A stretch of DNA of 37,613 nucleotides, taken from a virus. The position numbers and the translations under genes are program-made. Below, piece by piece: positions 2,864 to 22,122 of this stretch (the first letter of the stretch is position 1; each line of letters starts with the position of its first letter). The stretch spans positions 1-37,613 of the IMG/VR virus record IMGVR_UViG_3300045988_014133. One strand, written 5' to 3'. Below the pieces are notes generated by a model that worked only from the letters and a program-made list of their open reading frames with translations, searched no databases and was not told the DNA's origin.

Positions 2864-3208
2864 ATGGATATTTCTATTGTAAATGATTACTTTGTACCGG
2901 CGGTAGTTGTGATGTGCCTTTGCATCGGCTACATCATGAGAAACTGGATGCCAACCGATAACAAGTGGATTCCAACGGTGCTGTTTGTCGTCGGTATCGT
3001 ATGCGGAATCGTGGTAGACGGTCTGACCTTTACGGCGGTAGTTTCCGGTGCAGTGTCCGGACTGGCGGCGGTCGGGCTGAATCAGGCGTTCAAACAGGCG
3101 TTAGGCTTGAATGTTCGCCCGGACATTGAAACCACCGACGAAGAGGTGCAGGATTACGAACTGGCAGAGGAAGAGGATGAAGCAGAAGAAGGTGAAGATG
3201 ATGAGTAA
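2864..3208 (+). CDS. Holin (Phage_holin_5 / Hol44-like)
   Basis: It has a GGAGAAGGAG RBS and hydrophobic segments (VPAVVVMCLCIGYI, WIPTVLFVVGIVCGIVV, AVVSGAVSGLAAVGLNQAFKQ). It ends in an acidic tail and overlaps the start of the endolysin. Confidence 0.75.
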   Translation: MDISIVNDYFVPAVVVMCLCIGYIMRNWMPTDNKWIPTVLFVVGIVCGIVVDGLTFTAVVSGAVSGLAAVGLNQAFKQALGLNVRPDIETTDEEVQDYELAEEEDEAEEGEDDE

Positions 3209-3911
3209 GACGATTGCAGTACATTGTGGGCATGGCGTGAGTTTGGACGGAAGCTGGGATTCCGGCTGTGTATATAAGGGATATTCGGAAGCTAAATTGA
3301 TGCTTGCCATCACGAAGGCGGCGGTCAAGTATTTGAGAGCTTCCGGTGTAAAGGTGCAGTCGGATGCAGACCATGGCAACAACAAAAACATGATTGCCGA
3401 TGTACGACAGGCGAACAATTCCGGCGTTGCCATGTACTTGTCTATCCACTGTGATTATTCCGGAGCACCTAGAGGCGTTATGCCGCTGTACGTGTCCGGA
3501 AGCGGAAAAAAGCTTGCTAAGTGCCTTGAAAAGACCATTAAAAAAGATATGGGTATGAAATCCCGTGGAGTACAGAAGAGAACGGACCTTTTTGAGCTGA
3601 ACGGTACCGACATGACGGCGTGCATCTTGGAGACTGGCAGCATTAAGGGCGACTTGGCTACACTGAGAGACCATCCGGACAAGTACGGAAAAGCCATCGC
3701 AAAGGGCGTGTGCAGCTACTTAGGCGTGCCTTTCAAGGATGGGAAGAAGAAACCCAGTAAAGAAATCTACCGTGTAAGAAAAACATGGAAGGATACAAAG
3801 AGTCAGAAGGGCGCCTTTTCGTCACTGGAGAACGCTAAGAAATGTGCCGATAAAAACGGCTACTCTGTTTTTAACAGTAAAGGAAAGGCGGTGTATCGTG
3901 GCAAAAAGTAG
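3198..3911 (+). CDS. N-acetylmuramoyl-L-alanine amidase endolysin (Amidase_3) with a short SPOR-like C-terminal module
   Basis: Amidase_3 motifs are IAVHCGHG, LSIHCDY and ACILETGSI. The C-terminus YRVRKTWKDTKSQKGAFSSLENAKKCADKNGYSVF resembles SPOR / cell-wall-binding repeats. The start is taken at ATG 3198 after AAGGTG; the track start at 3111 lies inside the holin. Confidence 0.85.
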   Translation: MMSKTIAVHCGHGVSLDGSWDSGCVYKGYSEAKLMLAITKAAVKYLRASGVKVQSDADHGNNKNMIADVRQANNSGVAMYLSIHCDYSGAPRGVMPLYVSGSGKKLAKCLEKTIKKDMGMKSRGVQKRTDLFELNGTDMTACILETGSIKGDLATLRDHPDKYGKAIAKGVCSYLGVPFKDGKKKPSKEIYRVRKTWKDTKSQKGAFSSLENAKKCADKNGYSVFNSKGKAVYRGKK

Positions 3912-5515: not shown

Positions 5516-6097
5516 ATGGAAAACATGAGCTTGTCGGACATTGCCGCCGTGACAAAGGATAATGATGATTATTTTGGCAACGGTGGAATGTGGATTTTCG
5601 CCCTACTGATTCTGATGATGATGGGCGGCGGATTCTGGAATAGAGGGAATCAGCCTGAACCGGTGACGGAAGCGGGATTATGCAATGCGATGAACTTCAA
5701 CGGTCTGGAGAACAGCGTGGGAAGACTGAACGATAGCCTTCAGAACGATTACATGGGCGTGCAGAACGGCATTTCAAATCTCGGTTATGAGACTTTGAGA
5801 AACTTCAATGAGACGCAGAACAGAATTTCTGACTGTTGTTGCATTACCCAGCGTGGTATTGACGGAGTGAATTATAACGGAGCAATCAATACGGCGAACA
5901 TCAATGCGAACACTACAGCACAGACTCAGAAGATTCTGGATGCGTTAGCTCAGAACAAAATTGAGTCATTGCAGGCACAGGTAACACAGCTTCAGATGCA
6001 GAACGCAATGTGCGGTGTTGTAAGATACCCTAGCGCTACTACTTATTGTAGCGGTGCTAATCCGTTCGGTGCCTGCGGATGCGGAAACGCTATTTAA
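5516..6097 (+). CDS. Single-pass membrane protein with N/Q-rich helical region and Cys-rich C-terminus, moron cassette gene C
   Basis: It has a GGAAGGAG RBS and a TM segment MWIFALLILMMMGGGF. It also carries DCCCITQ and the tail CGVVRYPSATTYCSGANPFGACGCGNAI. Confidence 0.7.
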   Translation: MENMSLSDIAAVTKDNDDYFGNGGMWIFALLILMMMGGGFWNRGNQPEPVTEAGLCNAMNFNGLENSVGRLNDSLQNDYMGVQNGISNLGYETLRNFNETQNRISDCCCITQRGIDGVNYNGAINTANINANTTAQTQKILDALAQNKIESLQAQVTQLQMQNAMCGVVRYPSATTYCSGANPFGACGCGNAI

Positions 6098-6131
6098 TAG
6101 GGTGTAAAGGCATATAGCCAAGGAGGACATT

Positions 6132-6536
6132 ATGAGTTGTAAAAGTGCGATTTATGCGGTGAATACCAGCACGGCGACTATTCCGGAAGGTGGAACCTAT
6201 CAGCCAAATACAATAATTAGAAGATTTGGTCAGTGCTGCCAAATGGCGAACAACGCCATGGAGCTGAACGGTCAAGGCTACTATGATGTTGCGGTCACGG
6301 CTACGGTGGTAGGAACTGCGGTAGGAAACGTCACAATGGCGGTTTATCAGGACGGTACAGCCGTTCCCGGAATGAATGCTACACAGACCATCAAGGCAAT
6401 CGGCGATACCGTCACGCTTGGAACAAGTGGCATCGTGCGGGTGTACTGCGGTAAGAACAGTTCGACTCTTACTATTGTTATCGGCGGTCAGGCGGTCACC
6501 GGAAACAATCTTGCTATCGACATTACAAAGCAGTAA
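6132..6536 (+). CDS. Beta-rich Cys-containing protein (possible C1q/BclA-CTD-like sandwich), moron cassette gene D
   Basis: AAGGAGG lies 6 nt before the ATG. Alternating beta-strand-like segments include YYDVAVTATVVGTAVGNVTMAVYQDG. The fold assignment is a guess from pattern only. Confidence 0.65.
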   Translation: MSCKSAIYAVNTSTATIPEGGTYQPNTIIRRFGQCCQMANNAMELNGQGYYDVAVTATVVGTAVGNVTMAVYQDGTAVPGMNATQTIKAIGDTVTLGTSGIVRVYCGKNSSTLTIVIGGQAVTGNNLAIDITKQ

Positions 6537-6550
6537 GAGAACAAATGTTC

Positions 6551-6579
6551 TTGCATGAACTTTGAAAGAGGTGTATAAT
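6551..6579 (+). promoter_or_regulatory. Putative sigma-A promoter (TTGCAT-17 nt-TATAAT)
   Basis: TTGCAT is at 6551-6556, followed by a 17-nt spacer and a perfect TATAAT at 6574-6579. It lies just after the stop of gene D. Confidence 0.5.
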
Positions 6580-6585
6580 AAAACT

Positions 6586-6681
6586 GTGAATTTTACCATG
6601 CGTTCTAGGTATCATTGAGCGCCTCCTTTCATTAAATACGAGTTCTATGGAAAAAGAGTCGGAGTTATCCGGCTCTTTTTT
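6586..6681 (+). ncRNA. Putative ~95-nt small RNA (promoter-to-terminator unit without a credible ORF)
   Basis: It is bounded by the 6551-6579 promoter and the 6651-6681 terminator. The only plus-strand ATG (6598) opens a 6-codon ORF with no RBS. The RNA contains the anti-SD-like CCTCCTTTCAT (6622-6632). Confidence 0.3.
6651..6681. terminator. Bidirectional rho-independent terminator
   Basis: The stem GAGTCGG / CCGGCTC has 7 bp including one G-U pair and a 6-nt loop. It is flanked by AAAAA upstream and TTTTTT downstream, and it overlaps the stop of the minus-strand 72-aa gene. Confidence 0.75.
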
Positions 6682-6899
6682 CATGTTACAACTGCAAGCG
6701 ATTCAACGTAAACAGCAGTCCTATTAACGTATCCTTGCACGGTATTTACAAGGAAACCTTTGATTTCAACGAAAGAGAAAAGCGGAATATATGTCGTATC
6801 GGCGCCAATACAGCGGATAAATACGCCATCACAATTTACGATAAAGAAGTTCTTACAACGATGAGATAACAATCCGATAAGATTTACGTAATTAGACAT
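6681..6899 (-). CDS. Hypothetical 72-aa protein (Cys-containing, beta-rich), AT-rich accessory gene
   Basis: On the minus strand AAGGAG lies 7 nt before the second ATG (6899). The first ATG at 6905 is only 1 nt from the SD. The protein begins MSNYVNLIGLLSHRCKNFFIVNCDG. Confidence 0.55.
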   Translation of the reverse strand: MSNYVNLIGLLSHRCKNFFIVNCDGVFIRCIGADTTYIPLFSFVEIKGFLVNTVQGYVNRTAVYVESLAVVT

Positions 6900-6937
6900 A
6901 CACATACTCCTTTCATGATTACAAGTAATATGTGGCG

Positions 6938-6966
6938 ATTTTATACCTTACATTAAAAAAGCACAA
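6938..6966 (-). promoter_or_regulatory. Putative promoter of the 72-aa gene (TTGTGC-17 nt-TAAAAT on the minus strand)
   Basis: The reverse complement of 6961-6966 is TTGTGC and of 6938-6943 is TAAAAT, with a 17-nt spacer. Confidence 0.4.
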
Positions 6967-7056
6967 ACCATTTTCGGGGTGGAAAACAAGACAAAAAAAG
7001 CCCTTTTTATTACCTTTTGATAAGTGATAAAATACAATAGAATGGAGGTGTTAAAG

Positions 7057-7620
7057 ATGAAGGTGGAAATTCACGAAATATTGAAATTCGTACGGCAAAA
7101 GTCGAAGAAATCACAAGAAGAACTAGCATTTCTATTGCAGGTAGACGTTAAGACAATTCGGAAGTGGGAGACCGGAAAAAGTGAGCCGCCGTGTTCAAAG
7201 GTTGTCGAATGGTTCCGGGGCGTTGGCATGAACCCAATACCTTATTTGCTTGTGTACGCATATCCTAATGATTTCAAATTGGAAGAAATGCAGGATGCAG
7301 ACAAGATAGCAAAGCTCTATGAACTCATCACCGAGAACTTGACCATCGAGGATAAGAAGGCATTGGTTCAGATATTTTCGGGAATGCACGGGTCAAGTCC
7401 ATCTTCCGTGATTCAACTCATGTTGGCACATTTGAGCAACCCATTGTTGGAGCGAATTTATGTTGCAGAATTTATACTGGAGCAGTACAGATTCAACCAT
7501 ATGAACGATGAAGAGAACTACCATCCAAACATAGAAATGCTGGAGCGGGCAGTGCAGGCAGCCAAAGACGCCGTCGAGAAGGGCGATGAAGGCTACATGA
7601 ATACTATGGATGATATGTAA
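7057..7620 (+). CDS. XRE-family HTH protein with a ~120-aa C-terminal domain of unknown function
   Basis: GGAGGTG lies 6 nt before ATG 7057. The HTH is KSQEELAFLLQVDVKTIRKWETGKSEP. It is the last gene before attP. Confidence 0.75.
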   Translation: MKVEIHEILKFVRQKSKKSQEELAFLLQVDVKTIRKWETGKSEPPCSKVVEWFRGVGMNPIPYLLVYAYPNDFKLEEMQDADKIAKLYELITENLTIEDKKALVQIFSGMHGSSPSSVIQLMLAHLSNPLLERIYVAEFILEQYRFNHMNDEENYHPNIEMLERAVQAAKDAVEKGDEGYMNTMDDM

Positions 7621-7730: not shown

Positions 7731-7738
7731 AGGGTGTC

Positions 7739-7764
7739 GGGTTCGACTCCCACCATCTCCACCA
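7739..7764 (+). other. attP core: 3'-terminal fragment of an ssrA (tmRNA) or tRNA-Ala-type gene
   Basis: GGGTTCGACTCCCACCATCTCCACCA holds a T-loop, a T-stem 3' strand, a 7-nt acceptor strand, discriminator A and an encoded CCA. It is very close to the Bacillus-type tmRNA 3' end. The 5' T-stem partner upstream does not pair, so this is a fragment and not a gene. Confidence 0.7.
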
Positions 7765-7770
7765 ACAAAA

Positions 7771-7802
7771 GCCTTGAAGCAATTGAGTTTCAAGGCTTTT
7801 TT
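7771..7802 (+). terminator. Rho-independent terminator supplied by the phage for the reconstituted host RNA gene
   Basis: The stem GCCTTGAA / TTCAAGGC has 8 bp and a 10-nt loop. It is followed by TTTTTT. Confidence 0.8.
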
Positions 7803-7845: not shown

Positions 7846-8967
7846 CTACTTTTCCACAGATTTTGAGAACATTTCGCCCAATGCGGAAGCTAGTTTATCT
7901 TCTTCCTCTTTCTTCTCGAAGAGATGCGTATAAATTCCGAGTGTCGTTGAAACATTAGCGTGACCCATGCGCTTTGAAACGGTTGCGGGGTCAGCGCCCA
8001 TTGAAATGCAGATGGAAGCGTACGTGTGACGGAGAGCATGAAAGGTAATCGGTTCAAGTCCGATGCGCTCCATGTAACGACTCAATCTTTTGGCGCACTG
8101 TTCCGGGTGGAAAGCTTCACCATTTTGTTCTTTAATTAGGTAGTCCGAATCGGTCCACAACGGACCGAGCTTCAATTTTTGCTCTATGTGATGTTTTCGG
8201 AGAGCCTTCACATCACGAATAACTGGCGCCGGAAGGATGCACAAGCGTTCACCGGAGGACGTTTTGGTATCCTTCACGAATTCGTTTCCTATCCGGTGCA
8301 TATATCTAGTGCGCTTGATAAAGAATCTTCCATCATCCGGTATTTCATCTTCCAGTATCCCCATTATCTCCCCACGACGAAGAGAGCCGAAAAGAGCCAG
8401 CTCAAAACAGACCCTTTGGTCAAGTGGGATTTCGTCAAGGTGGGAACAGAACACGGTGAAGTCTTCCGGCGAAAGTATCTGAATTTCTTTTTTCTTGTTT
8501 GATGGAAGTATAACATCATGACATGGATTGCTTTTCAAGAGTTCCCAGTTAACCGCAATCGAACAGCAAAGGCGGAGGATGGAATAGGTATCTTTCACGG
8601 TTTTCGGGGATAAATTCACCGATAAATCATCTATCCACGCTTGAATGGTCCGAGGCGTTAATTTAAGCAAATCTAGCGTTCCTATGGTGGTATCAATCCT
8701 CTTAAGTGCAGCGTTATATCCGTAAATGGTATTTTGAGATTTGTTATTGATAACCTGATTCCATACGGCGCTACACATATCCGACACTGTTTTACATTGC
8801 GAGGACACGACGGAAATTGACTCAACCCACTTATCTATTTGAGCGTTAAGGTCCTTTTTCGATGTGGCATGAAACACTTTTGATTTCTGCTTTCTTTTCC
8901 CGGTATAGTCCGGCTCTAAGTCTACCCATACCCTATATTTATTCCGCTCTAACTGCTTGATATGCAT
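7846..8967 (-). CDS. int: Tyrosine recombinase / phage integrase
   Basis: The 373-aa protein has a catalytic region LRRGEI ... HALRHTYASICISMGADPATVSKRMGHANVSTTLGIYTHLF (R..HxxR..Y). It is adjacent to attP. Confidence 0.95.
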   Translation of the reverse strand: MHIKQLERNKYRVWVDLEPDYTGKRKQKSKVFHATSKKDLNAQIDKWVESISVVSSQCKTVSDMCSAVWNQVINNKSQNTIYGYNAALKRIDTTIGTLDLLKLTPRTIQAWIDDLSVNLSPKTVKDTYSILRLCCSIAVNWELLKSNPCHDVILPSNKKKEIQILSPEDFTVFCSHLDEIPLDQRVCFELALFGSLRRGEIMGILEDEIPDDGRFFIKRTRYMHRIGNEFVKDTKTSSGERLCILPAPVIRDVKALRKHHIEQKLKLGPLWTDSDYLIKEQNGEAFHPEQCAKRLSRYMERIGLEPITFHALRHTYASICISMGADPATVSKRMGHANVSTTLGIYTHLFEKKEEEDKLASALGEMFSKSVEK

Positions 8968-8971
8968 AACA

Positions 8972-9379
8972 TCACTTCCTTTGACCGACTATAAAATCAA
9001 GCTGCTTATCCATATAGTCAACTTCTGAATCGTCTAAGTTGGAGGCTTTTATCTTTGCGCAAAGGTCGTTAGATGAGCTTTGCATTTCGACTAAAGCCTT
9101 AAACTCGGGATTGTCGGAATCAAGAATATAGTCGATGTAATATTCCTTATTGAGTCCGTCCGGAATATCCGCTTCCGTGAACCCGGCGAGGTAAGCAGGG
9201 TTCACATCTAAAACCTGTGCAAATTTCGCAACCTTATCACGTGGAATATCTCGTTCCCCTTTTTCGATTTTATTGATAGTAGACCTAGAACTATAACCGA
9301 CAAGCCGCCCCAATTCTGCCTGTGATAATCCTAGCCGCTCTCTTTCTTTTTTTATTCTCTTGCCTATATTATCCATCAT
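8972..9379 (-). CDS. CI-like lysogeny repressor (XRE HTH)
   Basis: The HTH is LSQAELGRLVGYSSRSTINKIEKGERDIP. It lies upstream of int in the same orientation and diverges from the early lytic genes. Confidence 0.85.
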   Translation of the reverse strand: MMDNIGKRIKKERERLGLSQAELGRLVGYSSRSTINKIEKGERDIPRDKVAKFAQVLDVNPAYLAGFTEADIPDGLNKEYYIDYILDSDNPEFKALVEMQSSSNDLCAKIKASNLDDSEVDYMDKQLDFIVGQRK

Positions 9380-9458
9380 AAACGCCTCACTTTCTGTTAG
9401 TTCTTATTGATATAGTACCATAAAGTTAAACAAAAATTAAATAATAATTAAAATAATG

Positions 9459-9487
9459 TTGACATGGAGTCGACATAGTGCTAATAT
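9459..9487 (+). promoter_or_regulatory. Early rightward promoter (TTGACA-17 nt-TGcTAATAT)
   Basis: TTGACA is at 9459-9464 and TAATAT at 9482-9487, with an extended -10 TG at 9479-9480. It lies in the 143-bp divergent switch region. Confidence 0.6.
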
Positions 9488-9522
9488 AGACGTAGGCTAA
9501 AAGTCTACGAAAGGAGGGAATC

Positions 9523-20884: not shown

Positions 20885-22122
20885 GCCCGAAACAGTTCAA
20901 CATCTTCTCATGGTGGAACAGCGGTAGCAAGTATTCCGATATGGACGGAATCATTGCGGATGGTTCCATCCGTTCCGGAAAGACCGTAGCGATGGGAACA
21001 AGCTTCATTATGTGGGCGATGGAATCATTCGAAGGGGAGCAGTTCGCCATATGTGGTAAGACATTAGGAGCGCTAAGAAGAAACGTGCTCTCACCGATGC
21101 AGAATGTTTTACCAGATATGGGCTATGAAATATCAGAGAGCCGCCTCGAAAACAAGTGGACCATTAGGCACGGCGACAACGTGAACACCTTCTACTTGTT
21201 CGGAGGTAAAGACGAAAGCTCGCAGAACCTTATTCAGGGCGTAACGCTTGCGGGGGTCCTATTCGACGAAGTGGCACTGATGCCGGAATCATTCGTGAAT
21301 CAGGCAACAGCACGTTGTTCTGTAGAGGGTTCTAAGTGGTGGTTCAACTGCAACCCTTCAACCCCGTTCCACTGGTTCAAGGTGAACTGGATAGACCGGA
21401 AGGAAGAAAAGAATCTTTTGTATCTGCATTTCGAATTGGACGACAACCGCAGCCTATCGGAGCATATCAAAAATAGATACCGGAGCATGTATCAAGGCGT
21501 GTTCTACAGGCGCTATATCCTCGGAGAGTGGGTAGCAGCGGAGGGCATTATCTATGATATGTTCAGTGAAGACAGGCACGTTACAAAAGAGAAATATAAG
21601 CCCGTGGGCGACGTTTACGTGTCGTGCGATTATGGAATACAGAATGCAACTGTTTTCCTTATGTGGGCGAAAATAAAAGGCATATGGACATGCATTCGTG
21701 AGTATTGCTATTCCGGGCGGGAAAACCTAAAGCAGAAAACGGATGCAGAATTTGTTCAAGACATGAAGATGTGGCTTGACGGCACGATTCCGAAAAGGAT
21801 TATCGTTGACCCGTCAGCCACTTCTTTTATTGCAGAACTCAGGAAGAATGGTTACACGGTCAAGCGTGGCATGAACGACGTGCTGGACGGAATACGGTAC
21901 ACGTCAACCGCACTTGGGAGAGGAGAACTGATGTTCGTTTCCGATTGCGTGAATACCATTCGAGAGTTCCACTCCTATATGTGGGATTTGAAGTCAGCGG
22001 ATGCCGGAGAGGATAGACCGCTGAAAGAGCACGACCACTGCATGGATGCGATGAGATATTTCACTTATACGATTATGAGACAAGAAAAAGTTAAAGTTAA
22101 GGGATTCAAAGAGGGAATCTAA
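20863..22122 (+). CDS. terL: Terminase large subunit (PBSX/Terminase_3-like)
   Basis: It has a Walker A motif (DGSIRSGKT) and a Walker B-like LFDEV. A C-terminal nuclease region follows, and the gene precedes the portal. Confidence 0.9.
   Translation: MFKWQPLSPKQFNIFSWWNSGSKYSDMDGIIADGSIRSGKTVAMGTSFIMWAMESFEGEQFAICGKTLGALRRNVLSPMQNVLPDMGYEISESRLENKWTIRHGDNVNTFYLFGGKDESSQNLIQGVTLAGVLFDEVALMPESFVNQATARCSVEGSKWWFNCNPSTPFHWFKVNWIDRKEEKNLLYLHFELDDNRSLSEHIKNRYRSMYQGVFYRRYILGEWVAAEGIIYDMFSEDRHVTKEKYKPVGDVYVSCDYGIQNATVFLMWAKIKGIWTCIREYCYSGRENLKQKTDAEFVQDMKMWLDGTIPKRIIVDPSATSFIAELRKNGYTVKRGMNDVLDGIRYTSTALGRGELMFVSDCVNTIREFHSYMWDLKSADAGEDRPLKEHDHCMDAMRYFTYTIMRQEKVKVKGFKEGI

Follow-up and report, generated by a model that had tools for sequence, protein, structure and literature searches.

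The locus studied here raises the question of what is encoded in a short spacer (6537-6681) that separates an upstream phage gene from a convergent, minus-strand gene for a 72-amino acid (aa) protein in virus record IMGVR_UViG_3300045988_014133, the whole 37,613-nucleotide (nt) stretch of which is referred to below as the window. An earlier reading of the letters alone, here called the original prediction, had proposed that the spacer carries a plus-strand RNA gene running from promoter to terminator, in a layout resembling type I toxin-antitoxin loci. Our analysis supports the first part of that proposal: every feature that had been listed is present where it was placed, and a small-RNA gene converging on the 72-aa gene is probably real. 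A LexA-type box at its promoter, which had been overlooked, suggests a different role, and we give about an even chance to the complete scheme in which an SOS-induced antisense RNA silences an OB-fold gene expressed in the lysogen. The argument concerns the following features.

6538-6551, no strand: 14-bp palindrome AGAACAAATGTTCT, a LexA-type (Cheo) box of the form GAAC-N4-GTTC, the last T of which is the first T of the -35 hexamer.
6551-6579, plus strand: small-RNA promoter, with -35 TTGCAT (6551-6556), a 17-nt spacer ending in GGTG and -10 TATAAT (6574-6579), from sequence and footprint.
6586-6681, plus strand: predicted small RNA of ~96 nt, its start inferred ~7 nt past the -10 and its end in the terminator T run.
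6600-6622, plus strand: stem-loop 1, GCGTTC (6600-6605) with GAGCGC (6617-6622) around an 11-nt loop, in minimum-energy and centroid folds.
6614-6632, plus strand: conserved block ATTGAGCGCCTCCTTTCAT with the anti-Shine-Dalgarno (anti-SD) stretch CCUCCUUUC; its last 10 nt are repeated at 6907-6916.
6651-6681, both strands: bidirectional intrinsic terminator AAAAAGAGTCGGAGTTATCCGGCTCTTTTTT (A5, GAGTCGG, loop AGTTAT, CCGGCTC, T6), common to the small RNA and the 72-aa mRNA.
6681-6899, minus strand, including the stop: 72-aa gene (open reading frame 6899..6684, stop 6683..6681) for a minimal OB-fold protein, from substitution rates and a structure model.
6907-6916, minus strand: the 72-aa gene's Shine-Dalgarno (SD) region, which reads AUGAAAGGAG in the mRNA and is the other copy of the direct repeat.
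6938-6966, minus strand (6966..6938): promoter of the 72-aa gene, TTGTGC-17-TAAAAT, from sequence.

The predicted small RNA holds no plus-strand open reading frame (ORF), as had been claimed: the ATG at 6598 opens just six codons (MRSRYH*) and has no ribosome-binding site (RBS). In an alignment of the first 10 relatives of the window, 2 of 144 columns are variable across the spacer (6537-6680), a diversity of 0.004 compared with 0.07-0.125 in both flanking genes and in the other two spacers of the same relatives, and there are zero substitutions across 6586-6681. Eight further viral contigs, which bring the relatives to 18 in all, agree with this constraint, and the spacer stays constant despite a synonymous divergence (dS) of 0.3-0.7 in the adjoining 72-aa gene. 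Two small deletions do occur in it, one of 2 nt at 6610-6611 (4 of the 18 relatives) and one of 1 nt at 6648.

A promoter footprint emerged when 32 distinct copies of the element were assembled from protein-based and pattern-based scans. The TTG of the -35, the GGTG and the -10 TA[T/C]AAT are unchanged in all of them, while all 13 columns from TTGNNN to GGTG vary, with two to four alleles each and fixed spacing. A footprint of this kind is what a functional promoter preceded by an operator should leave, and it upholds the TTGCAT-17-TATAAT promoter of the original prediction, the sequence of which was confirmed. Both promoters are kept as footprints in relatives whose 72-aa protein is just 39% identical. 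The length of the predicted RNA ranges from 92 to 102 nt across the 32 variants, and scanning viral contigs with the promoter pattern gave only contigs already collected. No part of the window matches Rfam 15 at the gathering threshold, and the region 6480-7060 has sub-threshold matches only, the best at 23.5 bits against a gathering score of 60.

Folding of 6586-6682 yields a 15-bp terminator stem (z = -3.45), the T run of which touches the 72-aa stop codon (6681-6683). The stem is kept through A-U to G-C changes (L056, L086; such handles denote individual relatives) and U.G to U-A changes, the loop varies freely, and a few variants have a mismatch in the stem. Sequence, folding and these stem-keeping changes thus all bear out the bidirectional terminator that had been described as overlapping the 72-aa stop. 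In stem 1, 30 of the 32 variants have a U.G pair if read on the plus strand and a C.A mismatch if read on the minus strand; the remaining form, GTGTTC/GAACAC in L058 and L089, combines a compensatory C-G to U-A change with a change from wobble to Watson-Crick pairing. The wobble pairs and compensatory changes favour a plus-strand transcript and the predicted hairpins, and with so little sequence diversity the support from covariation is modest. As a separate observation, the terminator stem-loop is present as its exact reverse complement (GAGCCGG-ATAACT-CCGACTC) in L013 and L085, which are window-type, and in L045, L080 and L103, which belong to a second type termed P27. These flips cover the equivalent of window 6657-6676, leave the flanking A/T runs unchanged and occur in two separate lineages; they are independent of each other and perhaps arose by template switching.

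The palindrome AGAACAAATGTTCT is the only exact AGAAC-N4-GTTCT in the window. Its core, GAACAAATGTTC at 6539-6550, abuts the -35 hexamer, which places a GAAC-N4-GTT[CT] palindrome in the promoter region; GAAC-N4-GTTC is the form of the LexA operator in Bacillus and Clostridia, with GAACnnnnGTT[TC] as consensus (PMC4234289). Written as AGAACAAA[T/C]GTTCT, the palindrome is invariant at 13 of 14 columns in the 32 copies, the single variable column lying within N4. In the P26-type phage L023 the spacer is of unrelated sequence and carries TTGACT-17-TATAAT with GAACGGACGTTC between the hexamers, followed by ~115 nt and a hairpin that ends at a convergent 70-aa gene. On the evidence of this motif, we think it somewhat better than even that the operator belongs to LexA.

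Several other sites of this kind were seen. On the metagenome contigs L071 (4922-5100) and L072, a different element has AGAACATATGTTCT abutting TTGAAA-17-TATACT/TATATT and a second box, AGAATATATGTTCC, past the -10. Next come GGGAGG, ATG and a short reading frame (~34-45 aa), then a hairpin and a gene in convergent orientation; with its box placed relative to TTG as in the window, the element resembles a further promoter of SOS type. In the spacer of L030 (4520-4660), a more distant phage, a TATAAT and a hairpin with a long loop are preceded by a degenerate palindrome, GAAACGTGTTTC, and a 65-aa gene (a remote homologue at best, hhalign E = 0.007) and a homologue of the XRE-family regulator gene described below take the same positions as in the window, an arrangement that may be a diverged version of the locus. 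The gene for the large terminase contains, at window 21925-21936, one more GAAC-N4-GTTC, GAACTGATGTTC, which is probably incidental, because ~0.5 such sites are expected by chance. The cI-like repressor (window 8972-9520) has a helix-turn-helix (HTH) domain only, with no S24 peptidase match, and the cI/cro spacer carries no LexA-type box. The box at 6538-6551 is the sole promoter-associated SOS box in the genome.

The convergent 72-aa ORF is a real gene by the pattern of its substitutions. On 10 contigs, close relatives with proteins 90-96% identical have the same surroundings; codon position 3 accounts for 30 of 42 variable sites, and the pairwise ratio of nonsynonymous to synonymous divergence (dN/dS) is 0-0.17 at dS values up to 0.68, so the coding-type conservation that had been put forward as a check is present. 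An AAGGAG lies 7 nt 5' of the ATG at 6899, and this RBS and the TTGTGC-17-TAAAAT promoter were confirmed in the sequence as originally described; P27-type relatives, read from their sequences, have TTGTGA-17-TACAAT at the matching place in diverged surroundings. An exhaustive HMMER search recovered three more subfamilies of 70-72 aa and 39-45% identity. The AlphaFold2 (AF2) model built with the resulting alignment (pLDDT 93) has five strands (4-14, 19-23, 26-31, 43-55, 58-70), and its top Foldseek matches are all OB folds at TMq 0.7-0.8: the anticodon-binding domains of AspRS and LysRS, SSB, PriB, YgiW and RPA. The caution that the product is beta-rich and unlike a short hydrophobic toxin was well placed, as the fold is all-beta and contains no hydrophobic or transmembrane helix. 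As modelled, the protein would have the same five-stranded barrel as the single-domain OB-fold proteins SSB, PriB, YgiW and the N-terminal domain of class IIb aminoacyl-tRNA synthetases, but it is just 7-22% identical to them, is shorter than the SSB or PriB domains, lacks a C-terminal tail and has no Pfam match. It likewise has no match in PHROG or NCBIfam. A PADLOC match to E1-E2 (10 bits, E = 0.04) was treated as chance, and the large SEA-domain proteins that the 72-aa query also matched seem to be noise from composition. The protein's most likely activity is binding of nucleic acids, and the gene is probably expressed in the lysogen because it has its own promoter, its own terminator and a lower G+C content.

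The small RNA and the 72-aa mRNA could pair in two places. They would be complementary over the common terminator hairpin, a length of ~31 nt, and the sequence CCTCCTTTCAT at 6622-6632 includes the 10-mer CTCCTTTCAT, which starts at 6623 and recurs at 6907-6916; this 10-mer is found only twice in the window, both times on the plus strand, against 0.19 occurrences expected, and ATTGAGCGCCTCCTTTC is identical in window-type and P27-type copies. RNAduplex predicts an imperfect duplex between 6599-6649 and 6885-6932, a target that takes in the whole 5' untranslated region, the SD, the start and the first codons, comprising 37 pairs, some of which are G.U, at -31.9 kcal/mol. Relative to dinucleotide shuffles this duplex has z = -5.0, and that of the main P27 type (L043) z = -4.1, although a shuffle z of -5 overstates the specificity, the 134 real SD-preceded start sites of the window being a better null. 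RNA of the window type gains 5-9 kcal/mol with start regions of its own type relative to non-cognate ones, and the variant with the 2-nt deletion pairs better with the 72-aa start region (-32.5 to -34.2 kcal/mol). The 5' region of the mRNA (6932..6850) forms no stem that sequesters the SD (-10 kcal/mol, z = +0.70 versus shuffles). The start region of the cI-like repressor was entertained as a target, with -32.3 kcal/mol in the window, and dropped, as it reaches only -21.3 in L001 (rank 19 of 31).

Masking of the RBS by the small RNA, as first suggested, is therefore a claim of which one half holds: the direct repeat covers the 72-aa SD and the duplex energy is favourable, so the mechanism is plausible, but the pairing is not specific, because its common core is simply anti-SD/SD pairing. 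The link in cis through the terminator appears to be the firmer tie between the RNA and the 72-aa gene. That the small RNA acts on the 72-aa mRNA is a tentative proposal, to which we assign slightly less than an even chance. In a further observation, the spacer behaves as a mosaic joint (equivalent to window 6530-6700), where an RNA gene of the window type can adjoin a 72-aa gene of the P27 type, or vice versa. L053 has a different upstream gene, with the breakpoint right at the palindrome, and on this basis the small-RNA module travels with the 72-aa gene and not with the upstream gene.

We propose that the spacer 6537-6681 is a small-RNA gene with a sigma-A-type promoter, TTGCAT-17-TATAAT, abutted by a LexA-type SOS box, and that its product would consist of a short 5' leader, one stem-loop, the single-stranded anti-SD stretch CCUCCUUUC and the terminator hairpin. 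In the lysogen, host LexA would hold the RNA promoter low, and the OB-fold gene would be on, in the manner of a moron. Upon DNA damage and cleavage of LexA, the small RNA would be made and would pair with the OB-fold mRNA at two places, the terminator hairpins, which are complementary, and the SD and start region. Regulation would be negative, pairing being expected to lower translation of the OB-fold mRNA, its stability, or both.

A number of observations weigh against this scheme. Both the small RNA and its start site are predictions; consensus scanners called neither the promoter nor the hairpin, and TTGCAT is a weak -35 that matches TTGACA at three of six positions. The hairpin was missed, in our opinion, because the A and T runs extend the stem and so consume the T tail. 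Part of the extreme conservation of the spacer could reflect a recombination joint between phage modules. Because the hairpin is flipped in several relatives, the terminator's strand asymmetry is mixed: of the 32 copies, 15 have an imperfect stem pair that favours the plus strand and 7 one that favours the minus strand. Binding of LexA is inferred from a motif that was compared with the consensus of Clostridia in general. With respect to the target, the 72-aa start ranks only 10th among the 134 SD-preceded starts of the window (mean -23.7, sd 4.9); in L026-L028 the cognate site gives -23.2 kcal/mol, z = -1.9 versus shuffles and a rank of 13-15 among 33-34; and the RNAs of L023 and L021 have no significant complementarity to the translation start region. 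Strict co-evolution of RNA and target is not seen, because RNA and gene types recombine freely (L025, L074, L084, L091, L090). Finally, P25-type homologues of the 72-aa gene occur entirely without the RNA, and the protein therefore does not need it.

The genomic setting of the locus is defined by the following genes and sites.

3111-3911: endolysin.
7057-7620, plus strand: divergent 187-aa XRE-family HTH protein (HTH_3 / PF01381, E = 6.3e-8, score 33 bits, cutoff 23).
7732-7764, plus strand: attachment (att) core, a copy of a transfer-messenger RNA (tmRNA)-like 3' end, GGGTGTCGGGTTCGACTCCCACCATCTCCACCA, between the XRE gene and the integrase gene.
7846-8967, minus strand: integrase.
8972-9379, minus strand: cI-like HTH repressor.

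The genome in the window, that of a temperate siphovirus-like phage, is circularly permuted: the tail genes exit at the end of the window and resume at its start. In the integrated prophage L005, the phage match ends right after ...CCACCA and is followed by host DNA (EamA, ParA, ParB), which is the prophage/host junction. This junction and the att core at 7732-7764 put the locus at the attR-proximal end, where the original prediction had placed it. Directly 3' of the att core lies a phage-borne 14-bp hairpin terminator (7767-7800), so that the integrated phage would give host ssrA a new 3' end and terminator. ARAGORN called no tRNA or tmRNA gene in the window or the host flanks, the att core being a 3' fragment only. 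Two genome matches lead to Clostridia hosts, L057 being an Acutalibacteraceae bacterium and L058 a metagenome-assembled genome labelled 'Mogibacterium sp.', and the likely hosts are Oscillospirales or other Clostridia. This corner of the genome is AT-rich, as had been pointed out, with a G+C count of 17 in 6901-6960 versus 36 in 601-660 and a regional minimum of 0.34 versus ~0.47. There was no similar DNA among 50,697 GenBank phage records, and no exact 21-mer of the spacer in GTDB genomes.

Upstream of the spacer, window 5516-6536 holds two 'moron' genes for proteins of 193 aa, with a Cys-rich C terminus and a weak match to PHROG 16490, and of 134 aa, with no family match. Both are kept in P27-type and most P25-type phages and may for that reason be core late genes and not accessory cargo. 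A 169-aa antisense ORF (6090-6599) was rejected, because substitutions there follow the plus-strand frame. Downstream, the HTH match agrees with the XRE assignment made at the outset. The AF2 model of this protein is confident for the HTH only (pLDDT 80-95, residues 1-50), and the C-terminal half is helical, uncharacterised and modelled too poorly for a fold search (pLDDT 64.5). Homologues share 34-56% identity; L026-L032 have the same layout, and homologues of ~53% identity keep the order 134-aa gene, 72-aa gene on the opposite strand, XRE gene. Phages of the window, P27 and L030 types have the XRE gene, those of the P25 and P26 types lack it, and in the prophage L005 (4447-4845) it is truncated to ~132-137 aa, the 72-aa gene and spacer being intact. 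It is thus an optional neighbour, which may regulate the divergent promoter pair, for which no common operator could be defined.

Among other explanations, a toxin-antitoxin locus of type I would make the 72-aa protein a toxin and the plus-strand RNA its antitoxin, acting through 3' overlap and RBS masking to stabilise the prophage. The locus lies in prophage accessory DNA. Of three hallmarks of par of pAD1 (RNA I/RNA II, Fst/Ldr), it has convergent promoters, as predicted from sequence, and a bidirectional terminator common to both genes, and it may have the third, as its direct repeat spans the translation start although the pairing is essentially SD with anti-SD (PMC7472228); type I toxins that do not act on membranes also exist in SymE and RalR, the latter prophage-borne (PMC4147584). 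The par/fst-like physical plan in the original prediction stands. The toxin half of that prediction fits less well: an Fst toxin is a hydrophobic ~33-aa peptide that bears a PXXXG motif, whereas the 72-aa product looks, from its model, like a soluble OB barrel with no transmembrane helix, and it has no match in defence or toxin-antitoxin libraries beyond the 10-bit chance one. The mRNA lacks the 5' stem-loop that hides the SD in par, the small RNA is ~96 nt and not ~40 nt as is RNA II, and its pairing with the RBS is not specific. P25-type homologues (L019, L020, L022, L057), which sit directly across att from the integrase gene, leave no room for an antitoxin gene, having a hairpin of 30-40 nt only. 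In addition, tisB, symE and dinQ have LexA on the toxin gene (PMC4147584), the reverse of what is found here, where an SOS box on the RNA promoter means that the antitoxin would be repressed during normal growth. We consider this explanation quite improbable. A coding alternative that had itself been raised, in which the product is a minus-strand 30-aa ORF (6615..6523, preceded by AAGGAGG) expressed by read-through from the 72-aa mRNA and the plus-strand RNA is its cis-antisense regulator, is very improbable. The ORF is present, and GGAGG, spacer and ATG are kept in window-type and P27-type copies and in L041, with open frames of 30, 28 and 29 codons as read from the sequences, a block change in L041 even preserving AGGAGG. 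However, the 2-nt deletion, which recurs in further metagenome copies, leaves two codons in L003, L004, L011 and L013, the ATG of L058 opens a different frame of 41 codons, and P26-type phages have just an unrelated 11-codon ORF there. Its residues are conserved only where it overlaps the upstream gene's end, the box or the -10, variation in the promoter spacer extends to every codon position, and the ORF has no family match and lies downstream of a terminator with no promoter of its own. A 53-aa minus-strand ORF was similarly rejected as coding, its frame being broken by the 1-nt deletion at 6648.

The spacer might instead be an ordinary one between convergent genes, in which the hairpin ends the late/moron operon and the 72-aa gene, the hexamers and 10-nt repeat are incidental, and conservation marks a recombination joint. 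The silence of the scanners on both promoter and terminator, the mosaic junctions on both sides (L053, L025, L074, L090) and the P25-type phages, which manage with a hairpin alone, are all in keeping with that explanation. A joint nevertheless fails to explain a fixed box, TTG, GGTG and TA[T/C]AAT amid 13 varying columns of fixed spacing, the non-homologous L023 spacer with its canonical promoter and GAAC-N4-GTTC box, or the compensatory change in stem 1, and we regard it as improbable. Finally, a real RNA whose palindrome serves as operator for a phage regulator, XRE or other, instead of LexA, or one that acts in trans on other RBSs of phage or host, is unlikely. The identity of LexA rests on a motif, the anti-SD block pairs as well or better with nine other start regions in the window, and the XRE start region ranks 2 of 31 in L001. 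As to the operator, P26-type phages keep the box and have no XRE gene, and nothing similar is found between the divergent XRE and 72-aa genes or in the cI/cro region (9380-9520), so that ownership by XRE or by cI/cro is unlikely and the palindrome was rejected as a cI/cro operator. As to targets in trans, the best candidate was the cI-like start region, which was not kept in L001.

An SOS-gated antisense RNA, our preferred explanation, is functionally closest to lambda OOP, an analogy and not a homology. The oop promoter (pO) carries a LexA site, and OOP RNA counteracts cII expression (PMC5869508). Like the RNA proposed here, OOP is a short phage RNA that runs from its own promoter to a terminator, converges with a lysogeny-related gene and is complementary to that gene's 3' end (PMC5869508), and the logic would be alike, DNA damage leading to an antisense RNA and to silencing of a gene of the lysogenic state. 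The two have no sequence relationship, and they differ in several ways: the present system, known from sequence alone, belongs to a Gram-positive host and has GAAC-N4-GTTC in place of CTGT-N8-ACAG; its target would be an OB-fold accessory protein by att and not a transcription activator of the immunity region; and the 3' overlap is confined to the common terminator (~31 nt), with a distant second complementarity at the RBS. The prophage-borne bsrG/SR4 and txpA/RatA pairs of Bacillus subtilis likewise involve 3'-end overlap of two RNAs, and SR4 also affects accessibility of the RBS (PMC4147584). Their overlap is ~120 nt, however, their toxins are membrane peptides, and no SOS operator is described for them in PMC4147584. 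In SymE/SymR and RalR/RalA of E. coli, a soluble protein acts on nucleic acids and not on the membrane, SymE being tied to the SOS response and RalR located in a prophage (PMC4147584, PMC1891008). In symE, in contrast, it is the toxin gene, not the RNA, that LexA represses; the overlap of SymR is with the 5' end, and the folds are unrelated to the OB barrel.

Antisense RNA control in temperate phages and the par-like layout are both already well known. What is new here is a locus that matches neither an Rfam family nor any deposited phage genome and whose protein belongs to no annotated family, together with a 70-72-aa mini OB-fold family that is fixed beside a tmRNA att site in several temperate-phage lineages of gut Clostridia. 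There is some small chance of a broader meaning, which we rate as rather unlikely: either the SOS-gated small RNA, whose complementarity to SDs is broad, carries a mimic of the 16S rRNA anti-SD and acts on several phage or host RBSs at once at induction, or the mini OB-fold protein is a type I toxin or exclusion factor that binds nucleic acid, does not act on membranes and has to be silenced by the RNA before the phage itself can grow lytically. If transcription and LexA control of the small RNA are true, the locus would be a Gram-positive gut-phage counterpart of lambda OOP, by which a lysogeny-expressed gene is reset at induction, and it would represent a par-type physical plan without a membrane toxin. 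In that case the RNA would also give a handle on the mini OB-fold family.

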